From the NCBI GenBank assembly GCA_963666735.1, contig OY762926.1, forward strand, positions 1,216,001 to 1,280,000: 64,000 nt of DNA, written 5' to 3'. A model generated the notes under the pieces. It was given only the letters and a program-made list of their open reading frames with translations. It searched no databases and had not been told where the DNA came from. This document shows, piece by piece, positions 31,828 to 32,000 of this stretch (its first letter is position 1; each line of letters opens with the position of its first letter). The translations under genes and the position numbers were made by a program. The stretch is from Gemmatimonadota bacterium (GTDB lineage Bacteria > Gemmatimonadota > Gemmatimonadetes > Palauibacterales > Palauibacteraceae).

Positions 31828-31857
31828 TTGACGTGCAGCGATGCCCCCTGTTACGTT
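31828..31857 (+). promoter_or_regulatory. Sigma70-like promoter for the mini-array/tRNA-like RNA/cas operon
   Basis: TTGACG(31828)-N18-TACGTT(31852) with extended -10 TG at 31849-31850. Confidence 0.65.
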
Positions 31858-31878
31858 AGTTACGCGTAGATGGCGGAT

Positions 31879-31898
31879 GTACCTGCAAATAACCAAAA
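31879..31898 (-). promoter_or_regulatory. Self-target (protospacer + TTT PAM) of the mini-array spacer
   Basis: Minus strand TTT-TGGTTATTTGCAGGTAC versus spacer TGGTTCTTGGCAGGTAC (15/17). Confidence 0.8.
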
Positions 31899-31904
31899 AG
31901 AAAT

Positions 31905-32000
31905 CTGCTTCGGCAGCCCCATTGAAGGTGGTTCTTGGCAGGTACGGCAGATGCCCTGCCAGCGTCCTCCGGAGCTTCGTGACTCCGGCCTCTGACGCGC
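31905..32000 (+). CRISPR. Cryptic one-spacer mini-array (crRNA-like regulatory RNA, CreA/CreR-like)
   Basis: Pseudo-repeat 1 CTGC-TTCG-GCAG-CCCC-ATTGAAGG; 36-nt spacer 31929-31964; pseudo-repeat 2 TCCT-CCGGAG-N8-CTCCGG-CCTC; main repeat is CTTT-CCGGGG-N8-CCCCGG-CCTC-ATTGAAGC. Confidence 0.82.

Follow-up and report, generated by a model that had tools for sequence, protein, structure and literature searches.

The window analysed here, 64,000 nucleotides (nt) of a Gemmatimonadota bacterium (GenBank assembly GCA_963666735.1, contig OY762926.1, positions 1,216,001 to 1,280,000), holds a type I-G CRISPR-Cas locus with a degenerate mini-CRISPR in the 357-nt intergenic leader that separates cas7g, the first gene of the effector operon, from a divergent coiled-coil gene. 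The spacer-like part of this mini-CRISPR starts with 17 nt that match a site in the same leader, and from comparison of sequences we put at roughly 70% the probability that the leader encodes a CRISPR RNA (crRNA)-like RNA of the CreR (Cas-regulating RNA) type, which would guide Cascade to its own cas leader and so make the Cas proteins autorepressed. Autorepression by degenerate mini-CRISPRs has already been shown for types I-B, I-E, I-F1 and V-A, and for I-G (formerly I-U) a single one-line mention was found in the accessible literature. The focal locus, an orthologous locus and four analogous I-G loci suggest that the same logic operates with the minimal I-G effector.

The leader contains a target site, a first pseudo-repeat (PsiR1), a spacer-like sequence (PsiS) and a second pseudo-repeat (PsiR2), with the coordinates given in Table 1. 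As the original prediction had claimed, PsiR1 consists of a 4-bp UUCG hairpin, CCCC and a 3' end identical to the end of the array repeat (GCCTCATTGAAGC) at 11 of 13 positions, the 36-nt PsiS falls within the 35-42 nt range of the array spacers, and PsiR2 keeps its stem through a compensatory change from a G-C pair in the repeat to A-T, with the CCTC end retained; all three descriptions agree with the sequence. The 8-nt handle of PsiR1 (ATTGAAGG) corresponds to the array 5' handle ATTGAAGC, and the spacing of hairpin, 4 nt and 8-nt handle is the geometry published for I-G Csb2, which cleaves the repeat 4 nt 3' of its 7-bp hairpin, so that an 8-nt 5' handle remains (10.1101/2022.08.08.503147, in the accessible text). 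An internal hairpin (GGCAG-ATGCC-CTGCC) occupies nt 18-32 of PsiS. Across the whole focal genome (G000, 3.98 Mb, 94% complete) the PsiR2 pattern occurs 30 times, 29 times in the array and once in the leader, and the full unit of handle, 30-45 nt, hairpin and CCTC occurs 29 times (28 in the array plus the one in the leader). Over about 8 Mb, with both strands counted, 103 handle-like 13-mers with up to two mismatches lie outside the array, so that about 0.005 would be expected in a 357-nt leader on the right strand. That the leader mini-CRISPR is real, and not a chance arrangement, we regard as confirmed.

Table 1. Coordinates of the features discussed (window positions unless another locus is named)
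Feature	Position	Strand	Remarks
Putative promoter TTGACG-N18-TACGTT	31828-31857	+	Sequence present, 8/12 consensus positions; candidate
Target with PAM-like flank	31879-31898	-	Target 31895-31879, TTT flank 31898-31896; matches PsiS nt 1-17
PsiR1	31905-31928	+	Hairpin CTGC-TTCG-GCAG 31905-31916; CCCC 31917-31920; ATTGAAGG 31921-31928 (5'-handle equivalent)
PsiS (spacer-like, 36 nt)	31929-31964	+	nt 1-17 are the putative guide
PsiR2	31965-31992	+	TCCT-CCGGAG-CTTCGTGA-CTCCGG-CCTC; equivalent of the 3'-handle hairpin
tRNA-like element	31998-32099	+	Rfam tRNA 40.1 bits (gathering score 29)
cas7g (csb1)	32175-33428	+	Effector operon gene 1; NCBIfam TIGR02570, TIGR02165 and TIGR02621 matched over the operon
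csb2	33431-35134	+	Effector operon, same NCBIfam set
cas3g	35109-37946	+	Effector operon, same NCBIfam set
'Cas3-extension family' gene	37943-38872		Effector operon
Second Csb2-C-terminal-like ORF	38749-39684		Match limited to the C-terminal (Cas6-like) half of Csb2
Cognate CRISPR array	39799-42002		30 repeats; transcribed sense is the minus strand
cas2, cas4/cas1		-	Part of the same type I-G locus
Divergent coiled-coil gene	31164-31817		Other border of the 357-nt leader
System-2 mini-array and target in G000	L006, about 1124-1235 and 1356-1379		Counterparts in L004 and L005

The self-match had been claimed as 15/17 at 31895-31879, beginning at spacer position 1 and flanked by TTT, and it holds in every particular: PsiS nt 1-17 agree with the minus strand there at 15 of 17 positions (mismatches at 6 and 9), and the site is the only one of its kind in the genome. 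When positions 6 and 12 are masked, sites with at least 14/15 matches are PsiS itself and the leader target only, and in a search of 660 nt the runner-up reaches 10/17. The target lies 34 nt upstream of PsiS. Past nt 17 the agreement falls to 4 of 19 positions (counted by eye). Type I-G is reported to use a TTN protospacer-adjacent motif (PAM), and each Cas7 to flip out every sixth base (10.1101/2022.08.08.503147, accessible text); the TTT flank of the focal target fits TTN, as do TTC in the ortholog and TTG in locus L080 (both described below), and one of the two focal mismatches, that at position 6, falls on a flipped base. For the array spacers, comparison with a phage collection gave no match and comparison with 36 genomes of the genus gave imperfect matches only, the best spacer agreeing at 30-33 of 39 positions with a multi-copy sequence whose flanks are TCG, TCC and TTC. 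A weak promoter-like pair of hexamers (8/12) precedes the target by 21 nt, and in the ortholog TTGCGT-N17-TAGGAA was read by eye at the equivalent distance. Just upstream of the focal target, at 31850-31868, a direct repeat of small size ends in a palindrome (GTTACG-TTA-GTTACG-CGTA); it could be a protein operator or a piece of the real promoter; the ortholog has CGTTAG at a similar place.

The orthologous locus is in G299, a genome of another family of the same class whose Cas7g is 77% identical to the focal protein, and it has the same order and spacing of target, PsiR1, PsiS, PsiR2, tRNA-like element and cas7g. Its target (ACCCCTCTAACTCACCA) is followed by GAA, which is TTC on the guide-sense strand; 21 nt further along comes CCTCATTGAAGC, then PsiS, which also has a hairpin in its 3' part, and a strong PsiR2 hairpin. 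The G299 PsiS matches its own target at 14 of 17 positions (mismatches at 6, 9 and 12), and because 27 sites in that 4.5-Mb genome match PsiS with three mismatches this figure is by itself not rare; the match counts because it lies 36 nt from PsiS, in the same geometry as in G000 and with a TTN flank. Relative to the focal pair, positions 5, 7, 10, 11, 15, 16 and 17 are changed in both guide and target, seven double changes through which the pairing has therefore been kept. An alignment of leaders for spacer-target covariation had been named in the original prediction as a check, and in G299 it yields these double changes with the TTN flank retained. G299 has no copy of the divergent neighbour gene of G000 at this locus, which assigns the target to the cas leader.

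Analogous guide/target pairs are found at four other I-G loci, L080, a second I-G system of the focal genome (system 2), G010 and G017. The PsiS of L080 agrees at 20 of 24 positions with a site on the same strand, 454 nt upstream and flanked by TTG; the order over 1855-2400 is TTG-flanked target, an open reading frame (ORF) of 92 aa with no Pfam family, the mini-array (handle CCTCATTGAAGA) and cas7g, and in this layout the locus resembles a CreTA-type module whose cargo is a protein. The Cas7g of system 2, which lies outside the window (L006, G000:C1:148639-152730), is 32% identical to the focal one, and about 270 nt upstream of its gene there is a mini-array whose units are degenerate versions of the repeat belonging to system 2 itself; G010 and G017 carry this mini-array too. 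In these three genomes the spacer matches the target at 16-18 of 20 masked positions (next best 11-14 within +/-700 nt), all three pairs being mismatched at 6, 12, 18 and 24, which are the bases that Cas7 flips, and G017 and G010 covary in guide and target at positions 4, 5, 19 and 23. The system-2 targets lie about 200 nt downstream, between -35-like and -10-like hexamers (read by eye), and have the 5' flanks TAC and TAT rather than TTN. One genome, G000, carries one such guide for each of two I-G systems. The covariation and TTN flank of G299, these four loci and the Csb2 geometry all support the self-targeting of CreA/CreR type that the original prediction had proposed. Elsewhere in G010 (C1:2120300-2126851) there are long arrays of the focal-type repeat, about 85 kb from the only cas7g detected, which is of system-2 type. 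One or two copies of the I-G repeat 3' end are also present on the viral contigs L136, L137 (380-495) and L134; in L136 and L137 they form a two-repeat mini-array with a 37-nt spacer, which may represent phage-borne crRNA-like RNAs for the focal repeat family.

Five nt after PsiR2 begins an element resembling a transfer RNA (tRNA), conserved in G299, that the original prediction had overlooked. Its acceptor, D and T arms align with the Rfam tRNA model, a structured 36-nt insert taking the place of the anticodon loop; the G299 element at the same place scores 38.8 bits, has a 40-nt insert and folds, at minimum free energy (MFE), into a clean cloverleaf with a long anticodon arm. Both elements share an identical 24-nt stretch comprising the T arm and the 3' acceptor strand, unique in G000. 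The closest host tRNA is tRNA-Thr(UGU), to which the element is identical in the T arm and similar in the D arm, variable loop and acceptor, but from which it differs in having a 36-40 nt insert instead of an anticodon loop and in not being called by ARAGORN. A bona fide tRNA gene was rejected on these last two grounds, there being no 7-nt anticodon loop, and a Y RNA (a tRNA mimic of the YrlA type) was rejected because PF05731 (Ro/TROVE) was not found in the 94% complete G000, while control genomes were positive. In an alignment of four sequences 81.5% of cells pair in the cloverleaf, against 43-55% with slid partners, the structure having been taken from one row; with n=4 the covariation is not significant, as shuffle controls were not exceeded (87-178/500), so that it is the Rfam scores that carry the tRNA-like call. 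A scan of the leader with Rfam gave no family besides tRNA at E<0.5. The shared 24-mer has eight matches in metagenomes, none of them CRISPR-linked and most in ordinary tRNAs (three with odd inserts), and no match in viral sequences; among 201 genomes of the family of G299 the module is present in G299 only, the other 20 matches covering the T-arm region alone. On a metagenome contig, L098 (about 560-711), this T arm and acceptor strand recur in a tRNA-like element that has a long insert; the ORF just downstream of it has a start that may resemble Ro/TROVE proteins. RNase P and RNase Z are known to recognise the stack of acceptor and T arm and the elbow, the parts of a tRNA that are kept in the element. 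It would most likely give RNase P a place to cut 5 nt beyond PsiR2, and this cut would separate the guide from the cas messenger RNA (mRNA).

The circuit that we envisage would run as follows. Transcription would start from a promoter near 31828-31857 and proceed across target, mini-CRISPR and tRNA-like element into and through cas7g. Csb2 would cleave beyond both pseudo-repeat hairpins, 4 nt on their 3' side, giving an RNA of about 72 nt composed of ATTGAAGG, the 36-nt PsiS and the PsiR2 hairpin, and RNase P cleavage at the tRNA-like element would free this guide from the cas mRNA. Loaded with it, Cas7g and Csb2 would bind the TTT-flanked site through 17 nt of PAM-proximal pairing with the plus strand, that is, the non-template strand of the operon. 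Because pairing stops at nt 17, no full R-loop would form and no cutting by Cas3 would follow, and the bound complex would block RNA polymerase some 15-30 nt into the transcript. Such a block would lower Cas proteins, guide and tRNA-like RNA alike and so close a negative feedback loop; since the target is probably inside the guide's own transcript, the guide would limit itself. From work on other subtypes we infer both the repression and the possibility that the loop senses crRNA load or anti-CRISPRs.

Several observations weigh against autorepression by such a guide. The Rfam model CRISPR-DR16, to which the array repeats score 35-40 bits, gives no score for PsiR1 or PsiR2 even at E<=10, and the G299 PsiR1 shows, by eye, no hairpin at the correct distance from the handle. 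As for the TTGACG-N18-TACGTT promoter of the original prediction, the hexamers do exist where it placed them, but they agree with the consensus at only 8 of 12 positions and a consensus scan of 31700-32300 called no promoter. A profile search found no Csx17/Cas8g in G000, a weak negative since the model's control was silent too; PAM reading by this I-G variant is consequently an assumption. The module is also rare and sporadic. In a scan of 90 loci with Cas7g homologues (at least one locus present twice) for a 12-mer resembling the handle, followed by a seed match within 500 nt, a handle with a seed match of at least 14/15 outside true arrays was found in G000, G299 and L080 only. It was not found in G138 (Cas7g 75% identical); in G021 (72%) a single repeat-like element sits 92 nt before the ATG, and the best seed match is 11-12/15, which is background; and in the closest relative, G013 (86%), the leader has been replaced and cas7g truncated beside a transposase-like insertion. 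L052 retains the 3' two-thirds of the tRNA-like element, and in five of eight upstream regions inspected by eye the sequence before cas7g looks like another gene. Finally, target and PsiS are inverted repeats and could pair within one transcript.

This last point leads to the rival that survives best, in which the inverted repeat 31879-31895/31929-31945 would act at the RNA level only, as a long hairpin in the leader that serves, for example, as an RNase III site, attenuator or stability element, its CRISPR likeness being a relic. The MFE and centroid folds of the leader do hold such a stem, with the UUCG hairpin at its tip, and the covariation between G000 and G299 fits RNA-RNA as well as RNA-DNA pairing; the z-scores of the leader folds are nevertheless modest (-1.9 and -1.7). 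A stem of this kind leaves unexplained the TTT and TTC flanks, the start of one arm at the first base after the handle and the mismatches at 6 and 12. For L080 an RNA hairpin is no explanation, because guide and target are direct repeats there, nor does it suit system 2, where the target is about 200 nt downstream in a promoter region and every sixth position is mismatched. We consider action at the RNA level alone unlikely, with perhaps one chance in ten.

Slightly less probable still is a safeguard resembling CreTA, in which the guide would hold down a harmful product of the same transcript that loss or inhibition of Cascade would release. No ORF lies between target and cas7g, and the tRNA-like RNA is the only other product and the sole candidate; its element follows the target and is conserved along with the mini-CRISPR. 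Guides of CreA type that repress toxins are known from the accessible literature, and in L080 the 92-aa ORF sits between target and mini-array. Nothing points to toxicity of the focal element, however, and it presumably has none of the published CreT features; as the cas genes share the transcript, autoregulation alone accounts for the layout. In a composite of the two, the element would be an active component of the circuit, a mimic derived from tRNA-Thr that Cascade, through the self-targeting guide, would keep at a set level and that would turn harmful once Cascade is lost or blocked by an anti-CRISPR; it would then be a new kind of RNA toxin, a tRNA mimic, joining CreR autoregulation to CreTA-style safeguarding within a single transcript, and we hold this to be a long shot. 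In a milder form, if true, the locus would offer the first natural case in which RNase P, acting at a tRNA-like element, matures a CRISPR guide. A decaying array end or misplaced repeat unit of no present function is as improbable as the safeguard, since, for all that both pseudo-repeats are degenerate and below Rfam detection, that the module is missing in most relatives and that solo repeat copies occur in G003 and G006, genomes with no focal-type Cas7g match, a 15/17 self-match beside a PAM-like flank is not something that a relic would retain, or would carry through seven double changes in another lineage.

Autorepression by a CreR-type guide also has close parallels among known systems, described here as far as the accessible texts go. 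CreR is known for types I-B, I-E and V-A (Liu et al., bioRxiv 10.1101/2023.03.10.532045), and the focal mini-CRISPR shares with it the position of a degenerate unit in a cas intergenic region, the division of labour in which PsiR1 keeps the 5' handle and PsiR2 the 3' handle hairpin (as in CreA/CreR, same source), a seed in PsiS that pairs partly with a nearby site (over 15 nt in Salmonella and over 17 nt in the focal leader), which in the focal leader has a PAM-like flank and lies by the putative effector promoter, and the lack of an evident toxin gene; a 15-nt match is reported sufficient for the I-E CreR (10.1101/2023.03.10.532045). It differs in its subtype, in the placing of its target, which is upstream and probably shares a transcript with the guide, and in the tRNA-like element after PsiR2. 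The regulatory mini-arrays of Shmakov et al. (10.1101/2023.03.03.530964; I-E, I-F1, I-D, I-B and V-A) likewise have two repeat-like sequences flanking a spacer that is partly complementary to the cas promoter region at a cognate PAM, with every sixth position unpaired, whereas their target is downstream of the mini-array. The term I-G is absent from the accessible texts on CreR, on these mini-arrays and on the phage mimics of such guides, which have themselves already been published; creA-like elements for I-U receive one remark, as found by hand, with a supplementary figure (10.1101/2023.03.10.532045). CreA of the I-B CreTA toxin-antitoxin modules is similar in that a partly paired crRNA-like guide leads to binding by Cascade without cleavage, but it represses an adjacent toxin gene, and none was identified at the focal locus. 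The nearest precedent for the tRNA-like element is the engineered icrRNA of Haloferax, in which tRNA-like t-elements let RNase P and RNase Z release a crRNA that is functional in type I-B (PMC6546412): there too a crRNA abuts a tRNA-like structure and a working guide is freed without Cas6, but that construct is man-made and archaeal with t-elements on both sides, whereas the focal element is natural, is on the 3' side only and has a predicted cleavage. The literature searched yielded no paper tying a tRNA-like element to such a guide and no description of a target inside the guide's own transcript. The joining of this element to the 3' end of the guide hints at tRNA-processing enzymes in guide maturation or in the uncoupling of guide and mRNA. 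As I-G is under development for genome engineering, a native self-limiting guide that does not cut could be of practical use as a design.

Turning to the remainder of the locus, the array has 30 copies of a repeat that reads CTTTCCGGGGCGGATTCGCCCCGGCCTCATTGAAGC in the direction of transcription (minus strand). With a 'Cas3-extension family' gene and a second Csb2-like ORF instead of a recognisable Csx17/Cas8g, the focal system may be a Cas8g-less variant of I-G. Relatives of Cas7g were collected by a search with a 10-sequence alignment, which returned at least 80 loci (a search with the single Cas7g returned none). When the focal and G299 leaders were compared with these by BLAST, L052 was the only one among the matches listed and has no mini-array, and for the L080 leader the matches listed contained L080 itself only. 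In G013 (L007, G013:C2:318000-326100, region 4811-6840) unrelated sequence and the transposase-like gene stand in place of the leader, cas7g lacks about its first 25 codons and the divergent neighbour is kept. Solitary, near-intact copies of the focal repeat occur just upstream of a conserved gene in G003 (L112, about 1498-1540) and G006 (L113, about 1501-1543); their flanks are homologous to each other, and the focal-type Cas7g query had no match in either genome. Within the window itself, an ORF of 1136 aa at 28015-31425 has weak leucine-rich-repeat matches, all far under the family cut-offs, and looks like an ordinary leucine-rich-repeat protein.
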